From assembly GCA_963770895.1 (NCBI GenBank), contig CAVYRF010000002.1, positions 2,816,001-2,880,000 of the forward strand: a DNA stretch of 64,000 bases, in the 5' to 3' direction. The notes below the pieces were generated by a model that ran no database searches, had not been told where the DNA came from, and saw only the letters and a list, made by a program, of their open reading frames with translations. The translations under genes were made by a program, and so were the position numbers. This stretch comes from an uncultured Acidobacteriota bacterium. Lineage in GTDB: Bacteria; Acidobacteriota; Thermoanaerobaculia; Multivoradales; UBA5704. This document shows, one piece after another, positions 55,755 through 63,359 of this stretch. Numbering within the stretch: the first letter of the stretch is position 1; each line of letters starts with the position of its first letter.

Positions 55755-56531
55755 TCAGGGGGAGGCGGCCGGACGGAGCACCTGGGCGAGCAGCGAGATG
55801 GCGACGTCGAGGTGCTGGTCGGGTGCGAGCGCCGGGCCCAGCAGCTGGGCCTGGCCGGCGGGGGTGGCCAGCCGCTCGTCCCAGACGGCGCCCGGTACGT
55901 GGTGCCGCAGAAGGGCGGCCACCTGGGCGAAGTTGGCCTGCCGCGACGGGTGGAGCGCCGTGCCCAGCGAGCGGTAGAGCAGCTCGCCTTCGCGCCAGAC
56001 CAGCGGCGGCAGGCCGCGGCCGTAGAGGTGCAGGAAGCCGCGCCGCTCCAGGGCGTCGGGCCGCCGCGGCGGGGTCACCGCCTTGGTCATGATCAGGCCG
56101 CCGGACAGGGCGGCGCGCACCAGGCTCAGCTTGCGGGTGGGCCGCGGCTGGTGGGTCCTGTGGCGCACCACCTCGAAGCCGCGCAAGACCAGGTCGATGT
56201 CGGCGTAGCGCACCGTCAGCGGGGCGGCGGCACGCGCTTGGACCTGCACGGCGTCGGCGCCGAACTCAAAGCCGCGCACGACGAAGCGGCGGTCGTCGGT
56301 TTCGATCGCCGGCTGGTCCAGCAGCAGCGTGTCGAACCCGCGCTGTTGCAGGATGGCGGCCGTCTGGTGCGCCGGCTGGGGCGAGGAGAAGCTGGCGATG
56401 ACCGAGGGGCCGCCGCCCGGAGCACGCACGCGCGAGCTGGCTTCGTAGATCGTCTTGCCCAGGACCGCCGCCAGCTCGCGCGCCAGCAGCGCGTGGTTGC
56501 CCTTCAGGTTGTAGATCGCCAGAACGAGCAC
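55755..56531 (-). CDS. Hypothetical protein
   Basis: 258-aa ORF with coding-like usage directly downstream of the response regulator. Confidence 0.65.
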   Translation of the reverse strand: MLVLAIYNLKGNHALLARELAAVLGKTIYEASSRVRAPGGGPSVIASFSSPQPAHQTAAILQQRGFDTLLLDQPAIETDDRRFVVRGFEFGADAVQVQARAAAPLTVRYADIDLVLRGFEVVRHRTHQPRPTRKLSLVRAALSGGLIMTKAVTPPRRPDALERRGFLHLYGRGLPPLVWREGELLYRSLGTALHPSRQANFAQVAALLRHHVPGAVWDERLATPAGQAQLLGPALAPDQHLDVAISLLAQVLRPAASP

Positions 56532-56535
56532 GCGG

Positions 56536-57045
56536 TCAAGGGGAGGATGCCGCGGCGGCGAAGTCGTCGAGCAGGCGCTTGAGCAGATCAGGTCCTACCG
56601 GCTTGACCAGGTGGAGGTCGAATCCGGCTTCCTCCGCCCGCTGCCGGTCGGTGTCGCGGCCGTACCCGGTGAGCGCCACCAGGTGGGTGGGCGCGTGGAT
56701 CGGGTCGGCGCGCAGCATGCGCGCCACGGCGTAGCCGTCCATGTCGGGCAGCCCGATGTCGCACAGCACCACGTCCGGGCGCGAACGCCTGGCAAGGTCC
56801 ACCCCGGTCGGTCCAGAGTGCGCGATTTGGACCGTGTGACCGAACAGCGCCAGGAGGTCGCCAAGCGTTTCGGCGGCGTCGTGGTTGTCTTCGATGATCA
56901 GGACGCGCAGGGTGCGCAAACCGCTGCCACCGGCAGCGCCGTGCCCGCCACTGTCTCCAGATCGGTCGTCTGGTCGATCGCCGGATCGGTCGTCTGGTCC
57001 GTCGCCGGGTCCGTCGCTTTCAAGCCCATGGCTTGAACCGCTCAT
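56536..57045 (-). CDS. Single-domain response regulator (receiver) with repetitive N-terminal extension
   Basis: LIIEDN, LCDIGLPDMDGY, ALTGYG, HLVKP; TGCTAGAAT 6 nt upstream of ATG. Confidence 0.9.
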   Translation of the reverse strand: MSGSSHGLESDGPGDGPDDRSGDRPDDRSGDSGGHGAAGGSGLRTLRVLIIEDNHDAAETLGDLLALFGHTVQIAHSGPTGVDLARRSRPDVVLCDIGLPDMDGYAVARMLRADPIHAPTHLVALTGYGRDTDRQRAEEAGFDLHLVKPVGPDLLKRLLDDFAAAASSP

Positions 57046-57070
57046 TGAGCGATTCTAGCAGCCAGCATCC

Positions 57071-57421
57071 CTAACGCCCATGGCGGAAGACCAACTCCAC
57101 GATCTGGTCGCAGGTGGCTTCCGCCACCGTCTCGCCCTGGCGCATTGCCGCCCGCGTCGCCTGCTTGAGGTGGTCGCGCAGCAGCTCGCGGCCGACGGCG
57201 CGCAGCGCTTCCTGCACCGAAGCGATCTGGGTCAGGATGTCGCCGCATACGCGGTCTTCCTCGATCATCCGCTGCAGCCCGCGCACCTGGCCTTCGATGC
57301 GCCGCAGCCGGTTGTAGCTGCGCACCTTGTCGGGGCCGTCGCCCGCCACCCTGGGGGTGTTGTCCTGCTCGAGCTCGGCGTCGTAGGGTCCGTCTAAAAC
57401 GAGTGTTGCTTGCTCTGACAT
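57071..57421 (-). CDS. CsoR/RcnR-family metal-sensitive repressor
   Basis: RLRRIEGQVRGLQRMIEEDR.C.DILTQI.SV..AL, HL. Confidence 0.9.
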   Translation of the reverse strand: MSEQATLVLDGPYDAELEQDNTPRVAGDGPDKVRSYNRLRRIEGQVRGLQRMIEEDRVCGDILTQIASVQEALRAVGRELLRDHLKQATRAAMRQGETVAEATCDQIVELVFRHGR

Positions 57422-57512
57422 AGCATCCTCCCGCTAGAAAGGGTGAGGCGGCGGGCCGTTTGGGCGACAGAAATGCCATCTCGGATCGCAGGAAGTGTCT
57501 GTCTGCAGATCA

Positions 57513-57542
57513 ATGTGATATGATTAAAGTCTGTAATTAATG
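57513..57542 (+). promoter_or_regulatory. AT-rich element ATGTGA...TCTGTAATTAATG upstream of the secreted peptide gene
   Basis: Strongly AT-rich against the GC-rich background; similar element at 58214-58237. Confidence 0.5.
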
Positions 57543-57716
57543 ATCATGCATACCCGCGACTATGAACAAGGCTCCGCTGGAGGGGTGCACTCGGCAGGGC
57601 GCGACGCACTAAGTTATAAAACTGCGGTTTTGCTGCGGGCCGGCAGGAGCTCCGAGACCGTCCGGACCACCCGACCGAAGAAGACCCCGGCCACTGCGGA
57701 GAAAAGAGAGGGACTC

Positions 57717-58142
57717 ATGTTGCGTCGTCGTGGCGTACTTCACTTCCTGGCCGTGGTGGCGGTCGCTCTACTGTTTCCTGGCGGCATTCACGCCCGCGCT
57801 ACCGGCGCTCCTGGTGTCACCGGCGCTTCCGGCGCCACCAGCGTCACCGGTTCCCCTGGCTCCCGTGGCGCTTCCGTCTCCACCGGCTCCACCCGCTCCA
57901 CCGGCTCCACCGTCTCCACCGGCTCCACCGGCTCCAATAGATTGACCGGCGCCCCGGCACATGCCGGAGCGCGGGTGGCAAGGACGCCGGCGCCGGCGGG
58001 CACCACCTCGACCGCGGCGGCGTTATGGCACTGGCTGGCGGACCTTGCCGGCCTGGCGCCCAAGGCCCAACCCGGCCACGGCGCTCCGGTGCGGACTCTG
58101 GGAGGCGGTTGCCCAAACCCGGACGGAGGCCCTTGCACCTGA
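57717..58142 (+). CDS. Small secreted protein / candidate peptide precursor (141 aa) ending GGGCPNPDGGPCT
   Basis: GAGGG RBS; MLRRRG + hydrophobic stretch + IHA cleavage site; Ser/Thr/Gly repeat linker; amphipathic LWHWLADL; two-Cys C-terminal core. Confidence 0.75.
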   Translation: MLRRRGVLHFLAVVAVALLFPGGIHARATGAPGVTGASGATSVTGSPGSRGASVSTGSTRSTGSTVSTGSTGSNRLTGAPAHAGARVARTPAPAGTTSTAAALWHWLADLAGLAPKAQPGHGAPVRTLGGGCPNPDGGPCT

Positions 58143-58213
58143 CCGCCGGGCGCGGTGGCGGCAGGGTCGTCCTTCAGGCCGGCTGCCACCCGTCGCGATG
58201 GTCTGACTACGCG

Positions 58214-58237
58214 ATGTGAGATAATTCTGTAATAATG
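58214..58237 (+). promoter_or_regulatory. AT-rich element ATGTGAGATAATTCTGTAATAATG upstream of the TPR-like gene
   Basis: Shares ATGTGA and TCTGTAAT..AATG with 57513-57542. Confidence 0.5.
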
Positions 58238-58273
58238 TCTCGCGATGCGAACCCGAGGTCCCGAGGAGGTTCC

Positions 58274-60022
58274 GTGAACGACCACCCCACCGCCGCCGAG
58301 ATCGCCGGCATGGCCCGCGGCACCATTTCACGCAATGGCCTCCAGCGGATGGTGGCGCACCTGCTCGAAGGCTGCCAGCGCTGCGCCCGGCAGCTCGCTT
58401 CGGCAATCGAGCTGACGACGCCGGCGCAGGCTGCCGCCAGTACCGGCGCCGCCTGCAGCGGTGCCGGCCCTGCGCGCCGGTCCTCATCGCAAAGGCGTTC
58501 GCTGGCTCAGTCGGCGGCTCCTCAAGCCTATGACCAGGCCGCCTACGATCCGCCGATCGCCCGCGCCTGCGCCACGGCGCTACGCCACTTGCGCCAGCTT
58601 GAGCACGACCGCCGTCAGGTGCGCGCGGGGGAGCCTGACGCGGCGCCTCCGGCATCGTCACTGGCGGCAACGGCGCGGACGCCGGCCGCGAAGGCGACCA
58701 CCGCGCCGCTGGCCCTGGCGGCGACGCCGGCCCCAACTGCGCCGATGGCGACGCCGGCCCTGACTGGCCTGACTGCGATTCCGGCCCTGACTGACCTGGC
58801 CGCAACGCTGGCCACGACTCCTGCGACGAGGGCGGCGACCGCCAAGGCGACGGCGACGCCGGCCGGACAGGCTGACGCGGCGCCGCTTGCCGCGCTCGCT
58901 TCCCCCGGTGAGATCGCGCCGCAGGCGCGGCCGCCGGTCGCCGCCGCCGCGGCGCGAAGCCGGCGCAAGGATGGCTCCAAGGAGGGCGAGCGCCGGCACC
59001 CGGTCGCCCTGCTCAAGGTGGAAATGCTGCTCACCACGGCCTGGGATCTGCGCCACACCGACCCGCAAAAGATGCTCCAGATCGCCGAGCTGGCGCTCTC
59101 CGCGGCGGAGCGCCTGGATGGCTCCCGCCACGGCGAGGCGGCGGTGGCCGATCTGCGCGCCCGCGCCGCTGCCGAGCTGGGCAACGCCTACCGCGTCTGC
59201 GACGACTTCCTGCAGGCCGAGCGGATGATGGCCGAAGCGGTGCGCTGGCAGCGGCGGGGCAGCGGCGACCTGACGCTGGTGGTCCGCATCGGCGACCTGC
59301 TGGCATCGCTGCTGGTCGATCAGCGGCGATTCCCCGAAGCCGATGAGCTGCTCGACCAGGTGCAGAGCTACTACCAGAAGGAAAACGACCCCCACCTGGC
59401 CGGCCGGACGCTGATCAAGCGCGGTATCTTCGCCGGCTACGACGGCGCGCCGCGCCGCGCGCTCCGCTACCTGACGGAAGGGTTGGAGCTGATCGACGTG
59501 CAGCAGGACCGGCGCCTGGCGGTGCAGGCCGTGCACTCCATCCTGTGGAACCTGGTGGAATGCGAGCGCTACCGGCAGGCGCGCATCCACCTGTGGCGGA
59601 CGCGCGCGCTCCTGCTGGAGCACGGCGGGGAAATCTACCCGCTGCTGCTGCGCTGGCTGGAAGGGCGGATCGACGCCGGCCTGGGCGAGCTGGACCGCGC
59701 CGAGCGCGAGCTGGCGGCGACGCGCCAGGGGTTTGCGGACGCCGGCTACATCTTCAACGCCGCCCTGTCATCGCTCGACCTGGCCGCGGTGTGGCTGCGC
59801 CAGGGCAAGACCATGGCCGTGCGCCAGCTGGTCGAAGAGATGATAGCGACCTTTCGCGCCCTGCGCCTGGCGCGCGAAGCGGTGGCGGCGCTGCTCATCC
59901 TGCGCGAAGCGTGCGATCGCGACGAAGCGACCCTGGACCGCGTGCAGGCGGTGGCCGCGCTGCTCACCGAGCTGGAGCATCAGCAGCCGCGCCGTCACTC
60001 CGAAACGCCGGTCGCCGATTGA
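58274..60022 (+). CDS. TPR-like helical-repeat protein with N-terminal zf-HC2-like motif (HLLEGCQRC)
   Basis: GAGGAGG RBS then GTG 58274; H-x4-C-x2-C; helical repeats AELGNAYR...AE, LASLL..QRRF.EA, WLEGRI.AGLG....AE, DLAAVWL.QG. Confidence 0.8.
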   Translation: MNDHPTAAEIAGMARGTISRNGLQRMVAHLLEGCQRCARQLASAIELTTPAQAAASTGAACSGAGPARRSSSQRRSLAQSAAPQAYDQAAYDPPIARACATALRHLRQLEHDRRQVRAGEPDAAPPASSLAATARTPAAKATTAPLALAATPAPTAPMATPALTGLTAIPALTDLAATLATTPATRAATAKATATPAGQADAAPLAALASPGEIAPQARPPVAAAAARSRRKDGSKEGERRHPVALLKVEMLLTTAWDLRHTDPQKMLQIAELALSAAERLDGSRHGEAAVADLRARAAAELGNAYRVCDDFLQAERMMAEAVRWQRRGSGDLTLVVRIGDLLASLLVDQRRFPEADELLDQVQSYYQKENDPHLAGRTLIKRGIFAGYDGAPRRALRYLTEGLELIDVQQDRRLAVQAVHSILWNLVECERYRQARIHLWRTRALLLEHGGEIYPLLLRWLEGRIDAGLGELDRAERELAATRQGFADAGYIFNAALSSLDLAAVWLRQGKTMAVRQLVEEMIATFRALRLAREAVAALLILREACDRDEATLDRVQAVAALLTELEHQQPRRHSETPVAD

Positions 60023-60745: not shown

Positions 60746-61894
60746 TTGGACTTTGCCCTGACCGACGAACAGCGCGCCATTCAAGCGACCGCCCGCGACT
60801 TCGCGCGCCAAGAGATCCATCCGATCGTCGACGAGATCGACGAAAGCCAGCGCTTCCCGCGCGAAGTGATGATGAAGGCGGGGGAGCTGGGCTTTCTCGG
60901 CATCATCTTTCCCGAAGAGTACGGCGGCGCCGGCCTCGGCTATGTCGAATACGTGCTGGTCGTCACCGAGCTGTCGCGCGTCGACCCCTCGGTCGGGATC
61001 AGCGTTGCCGCCCACAACTCCTTGTGCAGCAATCACATCTACAAGTTCGGCAGCGACGATCAACGGCGCCGGTGGCTGCGCCCCCTGGCGGCCGGGGAAA
61101 AGATCGGCGCCTGGAGTCTGACCGAGCCCGGTGCCGGCTCCGATGCCGCGGGGACGCGGACGCGGGCGGACCGGGTGGCGGGCGGCTGGGTGCTCAACGG
61201 CGCCAAGACGTTTACCACCCACGGCCGCGAGGGCGACATCTGCGTCGTCTTTGCCGTCACCGACCCGGCGGGTCCGCGCCACCACAACATCTCCGCCTTC
61301 GTGCTGGACAAGGGGATGGACGGCTTCCGCGCCGGCAAGAAGGAAAACAAGCTGGGCATCCGCGCCTCGGACACCTCCGAGGTGATCATGCAGGACTGCT
61401 TCGTGTCCGAGGACCGCCTGCTGGGCGACGCCGGCGAAGGCTTCATCCAGGCGCTCAAGATCCTGGACGGCGGGCGCATCTCGATCGCCGCCCTGGGGCT
61501 CGGCACCGCCAAGGGGGCGTACGACACCGCGCGCGCCTATGCCAAGGAGCGCCACCAGTTCGGCAAGCCGATCGCCGCCTTTCAGGCCATCCAGTTCATG
61601 CTGGCCGAAATGGCGACCACGGTTGCCGCCGCGGAATGCCTCACCCTGGCCGCCGCCGAAGCCATGGACCGCGGCGCCGACGTGTCGCGGCTGGCGTCCG
61701 AAGCCAAGCTGTACGCCGGTGAAGCCGCCGTCTTCTGCAGCGAGCGCGGCGTGCAGATCCACGGTGGCTACGGGTTCATCAAGGACTACCGGGCCGAGAA
61801 GTTCTACCGCGACGCCAAGATCTGCACCATCGGTGAAGGCACCAGCGAGATCCAGCGCCTGGTGATCGCGCGCCAGCTCCTCAAGGAGCGCTAG
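60746..61894 (+). CDS. Acyl-CoA dehydrogenase (short/branched-chain type)
   Basis: FPEEYGGAG, SLTEPGAGSD, KLGIRAS, LDGGRISIAA, RHQFG, QIHGGYG, IGEGTSEIQR. Confidence 0.93.
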   Translation: MDFALTDEQRAIQATARDFARQEIHPIVDEIDESQRFPREVMMKAGELGFLGIIFPEEYGGAGLGYVEYVLVVTELSRVDPSVGISVAAHNSLCSNHIYKFGSDDQRRRWLRPLAAGEKIGAWSLTEPGAGSDAAGTRTRADRVAGGWVLNGAKTFTTHGREGDICVVFAVTDPAGPRHHNISAFVLDKGMDGFRAGKKENKLGIRASDTSEVIMQDCFVSEDRLLGDAGEGFIQALKILDGGRISIAALGLGTAKGAYDTARAYAKERHQFGKPIAAFQAIQFMLAEMATTVAAAECLTLAAAEAMDRGADVSRLASEAKLYAGEAAVFCSERGVQIHGGYGFIKDYRAEKFYRDAKICTIGEGTSEIQRLVIARQLLKER

Positions 61895-62901
61895 TGGCGG
61901 CGCTCGGGCGCAGCCGGCAGGATTGGCCGCTCGACGAGCTGGTGGCGCGTCTGATGGAGCGCCAGCCGCGCGCGCTGGGACGCGCTGTGTCGCTGGTGGA
62001 AGACGGCGGTGACGCGGCGCGGCAGCTCGTCGCGCGCGTCTATGGGCACACCGGCCGGGCGCGGGTGGTGGGGGTGACCGGTCCGCCCGGCGCCGGCAAG
62101 AGCACGCTGGTGGATCGCCTGGCTCGCCACTGTCGCGGGCGCGGCGAAACGGTGGGCATCCTGGCGGTCGACCCCACCAGCCCCTTCACCGGCGGCGCCC
62201 TGCTGGGCGACCGCATCCGCATGCAGAGCCACTACACCGACGGCGGCGTGTTCATCCGTTCGATGGCCACGCGCGGTGCGATGGGCGGTCTGGCGCGCGC
62301 CACCCGCGACGGGGTGGATCTGCTCGACGCCGCCGGATTCGACTGGGTGTTGGTCGAGACGGTGGGGGTGGGCCAGGACGAAGTGGACGTGGTGCGTTCG
62401 GTGGATTCCGTCGTGGTGGTCACCCTGCCCGGCCTGGGCGACGAGATCCAGGCGATCAAGGCGGGCATTCTGGAGATCGCCGACGTGTTCGTGATCAACA
62501 AGGCGGACCGCGAAGGAGTGGATCGTGCCTGGAAGGACCTTCACATGATGCTGTCGATCGGCGACCACGGTGCCTGGCTGCCGCCGGTGCTCAAGGTGAT
62601 CGCCACGCGCGACGAAGGCGTCGATCGGCTGCTGGCCGAGATCGACCGCCATCGCCGCCACCTGGAAGAGAGCGGCGAGCTCGCGGCCCGCCGCCGGTCG
62701 CACCTGCGGCTGCGCGTCGAAACCCTGCTCAAGGAGCGCGTCGTGGCGGCGGCCGACCGCCTGCTCGGCCTCGAACGCGAAGTCGAGCGCGGTTTCGCCG
62801 CCATGCTCGATCCCTACCAGGTGGCGGATCGGCTGTTTGCGGGCGTCGTCGACGGCGGCGCCGCTGCCGCCGCCACCGTCGCCGCGGAGCGAACGCTGTG
62901 A
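61894..62901 (+). CDS. meaB: Methylmalonyl-CoA mutase-associated GTPase MeaB/ArgK
   Basis: GPPGAGKST, AVDPTSP.TGGALLGDRIRM, ETVGVGQ, NKAD. Confidence 0.95.
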   Translation: MAALGRSRQDWPLDELVARLMERQPRALGRAVSLVEDGGDAARQLVARVYGHTGRARVVGVTGPPGAGKSTLVDRLARHCRGRGETVGILAVDPTSPFTGGALLGDRIRMQSHYTDGGVFIRSMATRGAMGGLARATRDGVDLLDAAGFDWVLVETVGVGQDEVDVVRSVDSVVVVTLPGLGDEIQAIKAGILEIADVFVINKADREGVDRAWKDLHMMLSIGDHGAWLPPVLKVIATRDEGVDRLLAEIDRHRRHLEESGELAARRRSHLRLRVETLLKERVVAAADRLLGLEREVERGFAAMLDPYQVADRLFAGVVDGGAAAAATVAAERTL

Positions 62902-63359
62902 TCCGCGGCGTCGATCACATCGGCATCGCGGTGCGTTCGATCGCCGAAGGCCGGCTGTTCTACGAAGCGCTGGGGCTGCACGTCGAAGCCATCGAAGAGG
63001 TTCCCGGCGACCAGGTGCGGGTGGCGATGATCCCGTGCGGCGGCACCCACATCGAGCTGCTGGAGCCCACCTCGCCCGACTCGCCGGTGGCCCGCTTCCT
63101 CGATCGCCGGGGGCCCGGCCTGCACCACATCTGCCTGGCCAGCGACGGCCTGATCGCCGACGACGCGCAGCTGCGCCAGAGCGGCTATCGGGTGCTGCGC
63201 CCGGAGCCGACGCGCGGCGCCGGCGGCTGCTGGATCCAGTTCGTGCACCCGCAGAGCACCGGCGGCGTCCTGGTCGAGCTGTCGCAGCCGGGCGACGACA
63301 GCGACGGCGAGCCCGCGCTCGAGCCATCGCAGCCCCAGCCCCCGCCGCCCCGGCCATGA
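62898..63359 (+). CDS. mce: Methylmalonyl-CoA epimerase
   Basis: DHIGIAV, IELLEP, GLHHIC, FVHP.STGGVLVEL. Confidence 0.92.
   Translation: MIRGVDHIGIAVRSIAEGRLFYEALGLHVEAIEEVPGDQVRVAMIPCGGTHIELLEPTSPDSPVARFLDRRGPGLHHICLASDGLIADDAQLRQSGYRVLRPEPTRGAGGCWIQFVHPQSTGGVLVELSQPGDDSDGEPALEPSQPQPPPPRP

Follow-up and report, generated by a model that had tools for sequence, protein, structure and literature searches.

The question raised by a small open reading frame (ORF) in a stretch of DNA from an uncultured Acidobacteriota bacterium (GTDB lineage Thermoanaerobaculia, Multivoradales, UBA5704; assembly GCA_963770895.1, contig CAVYRF010000002.1, positions 2,816,001 to 2,880,000) is whether its product, P0001, stands by itself as a secreted peptide or is one half of a signalling system. 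The whole stretch of 64,000 nucleotides (nt) that was analysed is referred to as the window, and coordinates are counted from its first letter. An earlier note on this DNA had described P0001 as an exported precursor with a turn between two cysteines near its C-terminus, and had overlooked the receptor-like gene directly downstream, which is the main clue to its role. The reading favoured here, with modest confidence, is that the small gene and this neighbour, a tetratricopeptide repeat (TPR) protein gene, form a cassette of pro-peptide and receptor whose working resembles that of Rap-Phr and the other RRNPP systems, with a different receptor N-terminal domain and in a diderm phylum.

A conserved gene pair in Acidobacteriota

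A genome scan with an alignment of the receptor-like protein (P0013) returned 192 relatives, of which the best 80 were taken as loci (L001-L080; 900 kb). These come from 43 metagenome-assembled genomes (MAGs) of Thermoanaerobaculia, Holophagales/Holophagae or unclassified Acidobacteriota. At 73 of the 80 loci an automated pick placed a similarly built small ORF immediately 5' of the TPR gene and on its strand, giving 71 clean sequences; the picks at L015 and L024 were wrong long ORFs and were excluded, proper small ORFs being present at both. Among the seven loci that gave no pick, four (L011, L033, L035 and L041) have the regulator at a contig edge and L042 has a candidate small ORF; at L034 and L054 there was no small ORF upstream of the TPR gene. 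The 71 locus proteins, P0001 and its direct homologue P0003 make up the family of 73 considered here. The pairing is also evident from the motif [DN]P[DN]G, which occurs within the last 30 residues of 74 of the 10,939 frames in the 80 loci, 70 of them just upstream of the TPR gene on the same strand, and in one of the 716 stop-to-stop frames of at least 40 codons in the window, that one being the small ORF. In the window a gap of 131 nt separates its stop from the receptor GTG at 58274, on the same strand, and a convergent helix-turn-helix (HTH) gene follows just past the receptor gene, as it does at 48 of the 80 loci. Judged by this gene order, the small gene and the TPR gene are a conserved, obligate pair, usually accompanied by the HTH gene.

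The window locus is orthologous to L001-L007, with identities of 85-90% for the acyl-CoA dehydrogenase, 77-83% for MeaB, 55-60% for the HTH protein, 45-60% for the receptor and 33-36% for the small protein, a ranking which indicates that the cassette diverges faster than its surroundings and the peptide fastest. Multiple cassettes per genome are common, with 24 of the 43 MAGs contributing two to four, carrying differing residues around the shared core.

The small gene and its homologues

The public gene call at this position, P0002, is a 200-residue protein that begins at ATG 57540, 59 codons 5' of 57717. The additional segment, 57540-57716, has 62% G+C against approximately 70% in the region and has no counterpart in P0003, and orthologous loci show GAGGAGGA-N4-5-ATG at the place matching 57717. 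Given that P0003 starts at the residue matching 57717, that the Shine-Dalgarno sequence is conserved and that the G+C of the extension is lower, the P0002 call is probably over-extended, with the true start at 57717. That the frame is open merely by chance in G+C-rich DNA, and untranslated, is extremely improbable. Its G+C content at third codon positions (0.75, against 0.87 in the neighbouring gene) does not by itself mark it as coding and antisense frames are also open, but the conservation is of the protein type, with the modules kept and the linker free, the Shine-Dalgarno site is conserved, and the same architecture recurs in at least 71 of the 80 syntenic loci. By these comparisons the small ORF is a real, conserved gene.

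Direct searches recovered very little. Word-indexed searches of 5.8 billion proteins, with the whole of P0001 and with residues 95-141, and an exhaustive phmmer search of P0001 over 1.84 billion cluster representatives together found one true relative, P0003, of 102 residues and from a 1221-nt contig; nine other phmmer matches, all long, low-complexity proteins, were set aside because only the repeat linker aligned. P0003 retains the N-terminus, A-x-W-H-W-L and G-H-G-A-P-V, and its C-terminal 14 residues, L-G-G-G-C-P-N-P-D-G-G-P-C-T and stop, are identical to those of P0001, with a linker that is shorter and unrelated. The earlier note had held that a conserved linker with an unconserved C-terminus would speak against its reading; the opposite was found, in P0003 and across the family, where the C-terminus and helix are kept and the linker is not.

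A genome scan with the P0001/P0003 alignment gave 65 pattern matches and no confirmed one, in a collection apparently without the window's own species, and when P0001, P0003 and the C-terminal part were compared with the 80 loci by local tblastn, noisy low-complexity matches alone resulted. No Pfam or NCBIfam model reached its cut-off on any of 19 small proteins scanned (P0001 and 18 family members); on P0001 the Pfam Collagen model (PF01391) scored 22.6 bits, under its gathering cut-off of 27.2, and the repeat region is missing in P0003. The ESM Atlas returned sub-threshold leads only (0.80-0.81), to unnamed Acidobacteriota clusters of approximately 90-100 residues, and Rfam over 56500-59000 gave one chance-level miRNA match (E 0.46).

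Modular architecture and the conserved core

P0001 has the four-part build described in the earlier note, comprising a signal-peptide-like N-terminus, a linker with 9-bp repeats, the helix LWHWLADLAG and a C-terminal core. The N-terminus, MLRRRGVLHFLAVVAVALLFPGGIHARA, runs from three Arg through a hydrophobic core of 14 residues to small-x-small sites (residues 24-28); a signal heuristic gave a net charge of +3, a mean Kyte-Doolittle value of 3.22 for the hydrophobic core and I-H-A / A-R-A as the sites. The linker holds 7.0 copies of a 9-bp tandem unit with 90% matches (57874-57936) and a period-18 array (57796-57843). LWHWLADLAG corresponds to residues 103-112, of which L-W-H-W-L (103-107) fits the family helix motif, and GGGCPNPDGGPCT with the stop codon spans 58101-58142, C132 and C140 being the sole Cys residues and the ends of a putative ring of nine residues.

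Across the family, a signal-peptide-like N-terminus is followed by 10-20 residues, a Trp-rich helix, a variable P/T/S/G linker and one to three cores, in proteins of 71-147 residues (many of approximately 100; 141 in the window). Signal-like features were found heuristically in all 73 members, with a net positive n-region in 71 and an [AV]-x-A site in 68, which, along with the conservation of the core, agrees with the proposal of an exported precursor with a functional C-terminal turn. The strict helix motif, [LFIVMAW]-x-x-W-[LFIVMW], is present in 52 of the 73 members and in variant form in the remainder, with a consensus of approximately S-L-L-[DE]-x-[AL]-[WL]-x-W-L-x-x-L-W. Candidate functions for this helix are membrane association, a processing or export handle, or a second ligand. 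Only W106, G120, P135 and C140 are invariant in alignment A3.

The core consensus, from 97 instances, is D-[RK]-G-x-x-[IV]-D-P-[ND]-G. Numbered from the D of D-P-N-G, position -6 is D or E in 63 of the 97, -5 is R or K in 30, -4 is G in 87, -1 is I or V in 75, 0 is D in 82, +2 is N in 71 and D in 20, and +3 is G. There is one core in 49 of the 71 locus proteins, two in 18 and three in four, as counted with a loose pattern that also catches a few P-G-G strings. The window core, G-G-C-P-N-P-D-G, keeps the G at -4, has P in place of I/V at -1 and is of the NPDG variant, its nearest counterparts being those of L028 (C-S-G-Q-P-N-P-D-G-G-C) and L057. The Gly-Gly pair that had been proposed as a processing site is therefore better placed within the core, to which its glycines belong, and no C39-peptidase ABC exporter is encoded nearby.

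Cysteines flank the core on both sides in 24 of the 71 proteins, forming potential rings of 7-14 residues, and 41 of the 73 members lack Cys once the signal-like segment is left aside. The earlier observation that the only two cysteines of P0001 flank the turn stands; the idea that a two-Cys core defines the protein holds for the window's 22-row receptor clade, where 18 of 18 classified rows are of this type, and not for the family at large, whose common element is G-x-x-[IV]-[DN]-P-[ND]-G. The number of cysteines is even (2, 4 or 6) in 31 of the 32 members with Cys in the mature part and odd in one, the sequences not being independent. This is the usual mark of disulfide-bonded exported proteins and supports, at the level of sequence, the disulfide loop previously thought plausible for the Cys-type clade.

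The same residues could be read in another way, namely as metal ligands (H105, H121, C132 and C140) of a periplasmic protein in the regulon of the divergent CsoR/RicR gene. The closeness of this PF02583 repressor on the opposite strand (88 bits, 295 nt away) is suggestive, as are the His and Cys residues shared by P0001 and P0003. Among L001-L007, however, only L002 has a CsoR orthologue, approximately 4 kb away, no CsoR cluster is found among the shared neighbours, H105 and H121 are not conserved in alignment A3, and more than half of the members have no Cys in the mature part. A metal-binding role is very unlikely, and it was rejected because neither the adjacency nor the His and Cys residues are conserved.

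The receptor-like protein

The protein encoded directly downstream, P0013, has 77 relatives in the protein collection, mostly of 440-540 residues, the named ones all being from Thermoanaerobaculia or Acidobacteria MAGs; there were none in the plasmid or phage collections searched. A 23-sequence alignment shows an N-terminal stretch of approximately x-[TS]-D-H-P-...-R-G-T-L-S-...-H-L-L-x-G-C-P-x-C, a variable linker and a C-terminal region of approximately 330 residues. The AlphaFold2 (AF2) model from this alignment (mean predicted local distance difference test, pLDDT, 77.8; predicted template modelling score 0.64) consists of a helical N-domain (1-57), a long helix (92-119), disordered inserts and a paired-helix superhelix (235-570). 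An insert of approximately 100 A/T/P-rich low-complexity residues (58640-58970, residues ~125-232) occurs in none of the 22 homologues aligned with P0013; apart from a single weak helix (residues 170-190), its model is disordered. No signal peptide or membrane helix was found in the sequence or the AF2 model, and the receptor is taken to be cytoplasmic because it has no membrane helix.

Foldseek comparison of the model with the PDB gave LGN/Pins TPR-peptide complexes as the best match (E 3e-6), followed by RapJ with its peptide (4gyo, E 1.2e-5), RapI (4i1a, E 2.6e-4), the phi3T Rap with its pheromone (8rsv, E 8.6e-4) and RapF-ComA (3ulq, E 1.5e-3). At the sequence level, a PDB profile search returned kinesin light chain TPRs only (E 0.05), and Pfam TPR_12 reached 23 bits against a cut-off of 30.1 on the window receptor; PF13424 is precomputed on several relatives.

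The N-domain carries the motif H-x(18-32)-H-x(3-5)-C-x2-C at 74 of the 80 loci, and M1, H4, H29, G33, C34, C37 and P50 are invariant among 21 diverse N-domains. Neither Pfam nor NCBIfam has a model for it; zf-HC2 fell below threshold, in seven of the 21 members and with a best E of 0.023, and the N-domain profile aligns to RslA (3hug_B, E 0.005) and DdvA (8rlz_A, E 0.3) in a stretch that spans the zinc motif, where it is longer by one residue. In the distant receptor paralogues P0085-P0087 (E ~1e-20) an XRE-type HTH replaces the zinc-finger-like N-domain, the HTH of P0087 having no specific similarity to the separate HTH protein of the window (E 0.15).

Predicted peptide-receptor complex

The two chains given to the complex prediction were residues 240-582 of the receptor (23-row alignment) and residues 95-141 of P0001 (13-row alignment). 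The interface score ipSAE was 0.80 (runs 0.76, 0.80 and 0.80), against 0.01 for the best of three controls, and the runs share at least 35% of contacts. This mark was reached by 116 of 157 solved complexes and by two of 215 mismatched pairs, counts that are rough since our own alignments were used. In the confident interface, P0001 residues 130-139 (GGCPNPDGGP) face residues of the concave groove on successive TPR repeats, and D136 has its lowest errors to receptor positions 345, 304, 342, 307, 308 and 260. Among 81 receptors these positions are largely conserved: R307 in 100%, R260 in 99%, N304 in 94%, S345 in 93%, L342 in 88% and V308 in 79%. Other interface positions (348, 382, 385, 418, 425 and 495) are variable, and interface entropy overall is 1.44 against 1.82 elsewhere (one-sided Mann-Whitney p 0.02). 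In a set of related but distinct ligand-receptor pairs one would expect just this picture, in which the pocket that takes the acidic turn is conserved and its rims vary opposite the variable flanks. The model supports, and does not show, binding of the core in the TPR groove.

These results also bear on whether the small protein could instead be the exported effector itself, such as a disulfide-looped antimicrobial, a surface-active peptide or a periplasmic protein, with the TPR and HTH proteins regulating its gene and the docking a false positive. Its signal peptide, amphipathic Trp-rich helix and Cys loop would suit such a role, as would the fast evolution, the many paralogues and the multi-core precursors. 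On the other side, the most conserved element of the peptide faces the most conserved residues of the groove in the model, and in calibration no more than two of the 215 mismatched pairs attained the mark. Nor do the conserved neighbours of the 80 loci include any RiPP (ribosomally synthesised and post-translationally modified peptide) enzyme or recognition element, C39 or other dedicated exporter or immunity-like gene common to the family; the absence of an adjacent RiPP enzyme, pointed out in the earlier note, extends from the neighbours in the window to the whole set. An effector role is accordingly considered improbable, and the earlier preference for signalling over a modified antibiotic has been strengthened by the conserved TPR and HTH neighbours and by the predicted docking of the core in the TPR groove.

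Proposed mechanism

Under the pro-peptide and receptor reading, P0001 would be exported by the Sec pathway, and its two cysteines would close the nine-residue disulfide ring outside the cytoplasm. A protease would then free a short C-terminal peptide, the R or K at -5 in 30 of the 97 cores being a hint of cleavage before the G at -4, and this peptide would re-enter the cell and bind the TPR domain, with Asp136 placed by the modelling against the conserved receptor residues R307, R260, N304 and S345. Binding would change the conformation of the receptor and so the action of the anti-sigma-like N-domain on a partner, for which the HTH protein encoded next door or a sigma factor from elsewhere in the genome is the likeliest candidate, and transcription would be altered as a result, perhaps via a conserved AT-rich box. 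Where a genome holds several diverged copies, their signals and receptors would act as separate channels.

An alternative is that the TPR protein recognises the precursor by its C-terminal motif while this is still in the cell. It could then serve as a dedicated chaperone or in targeting, or it could sense precursor that has failed to leave and adjust transcription via the N-domain and HTH protein, with no extracellular signal. The receptor is predicted to be cytoplasmic, so that contact within the cell needs no import, and the complex prediction cannot tell where binding takes place. TPR domains are known to clamp free C-termini, as in Hop with EEVD and PEX5 with SKL, and the 18 of 71 family proteins that end exactly at the motif (...DPNG) would fit such a clamp. 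A free C-terminus is not general, however, since many members have 12-19 residues past the core or two to three internal cores. The even-Cys rule points to an oxidising compartment, and fast divergence with multiple paralogues is more typical of signal and receptor pairs. Recognition before export is regarded as unlikely, though it is the alternative we take most seriously.

Several observations weigh against the pro-peptide and receptor reading. With a receptor that has no signal peptide or membrane helix, a secreted peptide must recross two membranes; among the 80 loci no importer is a conserved neighbour of the cassette, and a disulfide would not survive the reducing cytoplasm. The pro-peptide (141 residues) and the receptor (582 residues) exceed the RRNPP size ranges in PMC10075063. 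The Trp-rich helix is conserved like the core, yet it lies outside the confident predicted interface and has no part in the model. The fold of the small-protein chain is itself uncertain owing to its low pLDDT (42-49), and the confidence of the complex may partly reflect likeness to Rap-Phr, given that solved TPR-peptide complexes exist. The host organisms are known as genomes or MAGs only.

The membership of P0001 in the family and the co-evolution of the pair also call for caution. Scored with a profile of the 71 family proteins, P0001 reaches 9.1 bits, which the best of 500 shuffles equals, and P0003 reaches 19.1 bits; pairwise BLASTP of P0001 against the orthologous small proteins reaches E ~1e-4 over the helix region (E 4e-4 for the L001 protein). 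Because the profile score equals that of the shuffles, membership rests on architecture, position and weak pairwise matches. P0001 is a family member by architecture and position, and its sequence alone makes a weak case. Peptide class (Cys-bracketed, 26; ending at the core, 26; tail after the core, 20) follows the receptor tree of 81 TPR domains with 13 changes, against a shuffled mean of 34.1 and with none of 200 shuffles as low, which indicates co-inheritance and is compatible with co-evolution, as kin share labels. The window receptor falls in a starred clade of eight, all Cys-type, nested in the starred 22-row clade.

Comparison with known peptide systems

Among the closest known systems is Rap-Phr of Bacillus (RRNPP/RRNPPA family), where a small Sec-type pro-peptide gene likewise adjoins a gene for a cytoplasmic TPR receptor. 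The receptor lacks a DNA-binding domain and, in the window presumably too, acts on a separate regulator. The active part is C-terminal in both, some precursors hold multiple cores, and there are several diverged paralogues per genome. The receptor model matches the Rap structures 4gyo, 4i1a, 8rsv and 3ulq (E 1e-5 to 1.5e-3) at 12-17% identity, although TPR folds can converge, so that a fold match need not mean homology, and no match at the sequence level was found; among the Rap, Rgg, NprR, PlcR, PrgX and AimR receptors, the similarity is to Rap proteins alone. The receptor N-domain is of an anti-sigma-like type with two His and two Cys, in contrast to the three-helix bundle of Rap. The peptide gene lies upstream instead of downstream, and the pro-peptide is longer, with a second conserved helix module and a core formed by a [DN]P[DN]G turn that is often predicted to be disulfide-closed. 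The host phylum is diderm, and there were no plasmid or phage matches.

The RRNPP working logic more generally comprises secretion, processing and re-internalisation of the peptide (PMC9765709; see also PMC3601965), and tandem propeptides occur in known systems (PMC11343458). Measured against the five-point signature of PMC10075063, which includes a propeptide of 10-100 residues predicted to be Sec-secreted and a receptor of 250-500 residues, the window cassette has the TPR receptor and the directly neighbouring genes and exceeds both size ranges; for Sec secretion, the signal heuristic and the even-Cys pattern are in favour. RRNPP membership is not claimed, given these two departures in size from the five points and a resemblance to known receptors at the fold level only. 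The HTH-TPR quorum sensors PlcR-PapR, NprR-NprX and AimR-AimP resemble the cassette in having a TPR receptor, an adjacent exported pro-peptide and a transcriptional output, which in the present case is presumed. The distant paralogues P0085-P0087 have exactly the XRE-HTH plus TPR build of these receptors, whereas the HTH of the window is encoded by a separate, convergent gene.

The N-domain resembles zinc-binding anti-sigma (ZAS) domains (RslA, DdvA, ChrR and RsrA); its alignment to RslA and DdvA covers the G-x-L-S ... H-L-x-x-C-x-x-C region, and its H4, H29, C34 and C37 are invariant. The spacing is close but non-canonical (H-x4-C-x2-C, against H-x3-C-x2-C in ZAS domains). A further difference is that there is no membrane helix, that zf-HC2 is below threshold, and that no co-encoded extracytoplasmic function sigma factor was seen among the proteins and clusters scanned; no sigma factor gene of any kind was found among representatives of the 14 most shared neighbour clusters (inspected by eye, with Pfam on five) or nine window proteins. 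The eukaryotic LGN/Pins proteins, although the best fold match (template modelling score 0.43 by query and 0.71 by target), are 16% identical in sequence and belong to unrelated biology. In them an extended peptide occupies the concave groove formed by eight TPR repeats, and the match says no more than that the receptor has a fold of the peptide-binding TPR type.

Signalling by genetically encoded peptides through cytoplasmic TPR receptors is viewed as a speciality of the Firmicutes together with their phages and plasmids (PMC10075063; PMC9765709). The scheme of a peptide with a TPR receptor is thus a known one; its occurrence in this phylum is new, as are the peptide core and the N-domain of the receptor. 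A literature search, its coverage excluding subscription journals, returned nothing on this family or system in Acidobacteriota. Tentatively, and with more reservation than for the cassette itself, this may be the first cell-to-cell peptide pheromone system with a cytoplasmic receptor in a Gram-negative (diderm) phylum, with several channels per Thermoanaerobaculia/Holophagae genome, independent of the Firmicutes RRNPP systems, and with the HTH protein, encoded separately, under the control of a TPR and anti-sigma-like zinc domain protein. In soils, Acidobacteriota rank with the most abundant bacteria, and to our knowledge almost nothing is known of communication among them. Asp-Pro, Asn-Gly or Asp-Gly bonds occur in the core and are chemically labile, and the signal might therefore have a built-in lifetime. 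The analysis defines two protein families for which there is no Pfam or NCBIfam model, and a hypervariable small gene that sequence search nearly missed (one homologue among 1.84 billion representatives) was placed by way of its conserved neighbour. A conserved cassette in several copies per genome, with a recognisable core and a modelled pocket, constitutes a directly testable candidate.

Neighbouring genes and regulatory DNA

The features of the cassette and its immediate surroundings are collected in Table 1.

Table 1. Coordinates of the small gene, its neighbours and associated sequence elements in the window
Feature	Position	Strand	Remarks
Small ORF (P0001)	57717..58142	+	141 codons plus stop; ATG 57717, TGA 58140-58142; predicted pro-peptide of the [DN]P[DN]G-core family
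Shine-Dalgarno-like GAGAGGGA	57705..57712	+	4 nt 5' of ATG 57717
Signal-peptide-like N-terminus, residues 1-26	57717..57794	+	RRR n-region, hydrophobic core VLHFLAVVAVALLF; heuristic
Low-complexity G/S/T/A/P linker, residues 27-100	57795..58016	+	Tandem repeats; not conserved
Trp-rich helix module, residues 101-115, AALWHWLADLAGLAP	58017..58061	+	Second conserved module of the family
Core GGGCPNPDGGPCT, residues 129-141	58101..58139	+	N-P-D-G turn between C132 and C140; predicted TPR-groove ligand
Receptor-like protein (P0013), 582 residues	58274..60022	+	GTG start after GAGGAGG
N-terminal helical domain, residues 1-119	58274..58630	+	H4, H29, C34 and C37 invariant; resembles zinc-binding anti-sigma domain
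TPR superhelix, residues 235-570	58976..59983	+	pLDDT mostly >90; predicted peptide-binding groove
XRE-type HTH protein, 182 residues	60076..60624	-	Convergent with receptor gene; conserved third cassette gene
CsoR/RicR-family repressor	57071..57421	-	PF02583, 88 bits; divergent from small ORF, 295 nt away
AT-rich box GAT[AG]TGAGA[TG]AATTCTGTAA[CT][AG]ATGT	58213..58239	+	~40 nt before receptor start; conserved in window and L001-L007; candidate promoter/operator
AT-rich box copy, 16/21	57517..57537	+	Upstream of small ORF; G+C 0.53-0.57 in ~70% window; candidate promoter/operator

The HTH protein is recognised by HTH_3 in the L014 copy (31.5 bits against a cut-off of 23), the window copy being sub-threshold, and no conserved DPNG-like mimic was found in its tail. 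Beyond it, the block at 60746-63359 (+) encodes an acyl-CoA dehydrogenase, a MeaB/ArgK-like GTPase and a glyoxalase-fold protein that we take to be methylmalonyl-CoA epimerase, named by eye; this block is 77-90% identical to its counterparts and marks the orthology to L001-L007.

Upstream of the small ORF, the opposite strand carries genes for the CsoR/RicR repressor, a receiver-only response regulator, a 258-residue protein without a family match and a SpoIID/SPOR protein. The response regulator (56536-57045, -) has an N-terminal low-complexity repeat, GDGPDDRSGDRPDDRSGD, and orthologues at L002 and L004 that are 76-78% identical. All seven of L001-L007 have a second XRE-type HTH gene, divergent and approximately 300 nt upstream of the small ORF. 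In the window CsoR sits at this place instead, on which account the window seems to have lost approximately 3 kb relative to L002.

Other clades differ in what precedes the small ORF. At 14 loci with the core GWGIDPNG and a tail (L045, L047, L051, L052, L056, L059-L061, L068-L071, L074 and L078), genes for an ABC ATPase and a fusion of approximately 1200 residues between an ABC-2 permease and an M1 zinc aminopeptidase stand directly before it, ending 114-924 nt away; they are a candidate export or processing machine for that clade, the fusion differing in kind from a C39-peptidase ABC exporter, and are not present in the window. In the clade ending ...GMIDPNG (L013, L023, L026, L030, L058, L067 and others), a histidine kinase and an OmpR-type regulator are encoded 160-290 nt upstream on the same strand.

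The AT-rich box can be divided into two 11-nt half-repeats (TGTGAGATAAT / TCTGTAATAAT); a promoter of the extended -10 type and an operator for an HTH protein are both possible readings. A scan for sigma-70 consensus promoters found nothing and flagged neither copy of the box, and two terminator-like sites, both on the minus strand, occur at the chance rate. Approximately 40-110 nt upstream of the small ORF starts, L001-L007 share a conserved AAGTTGCCACAATAGGGTACATAC and an GGGCCATGGGGGCCC palindrome, which the leader of the window matches loosely.

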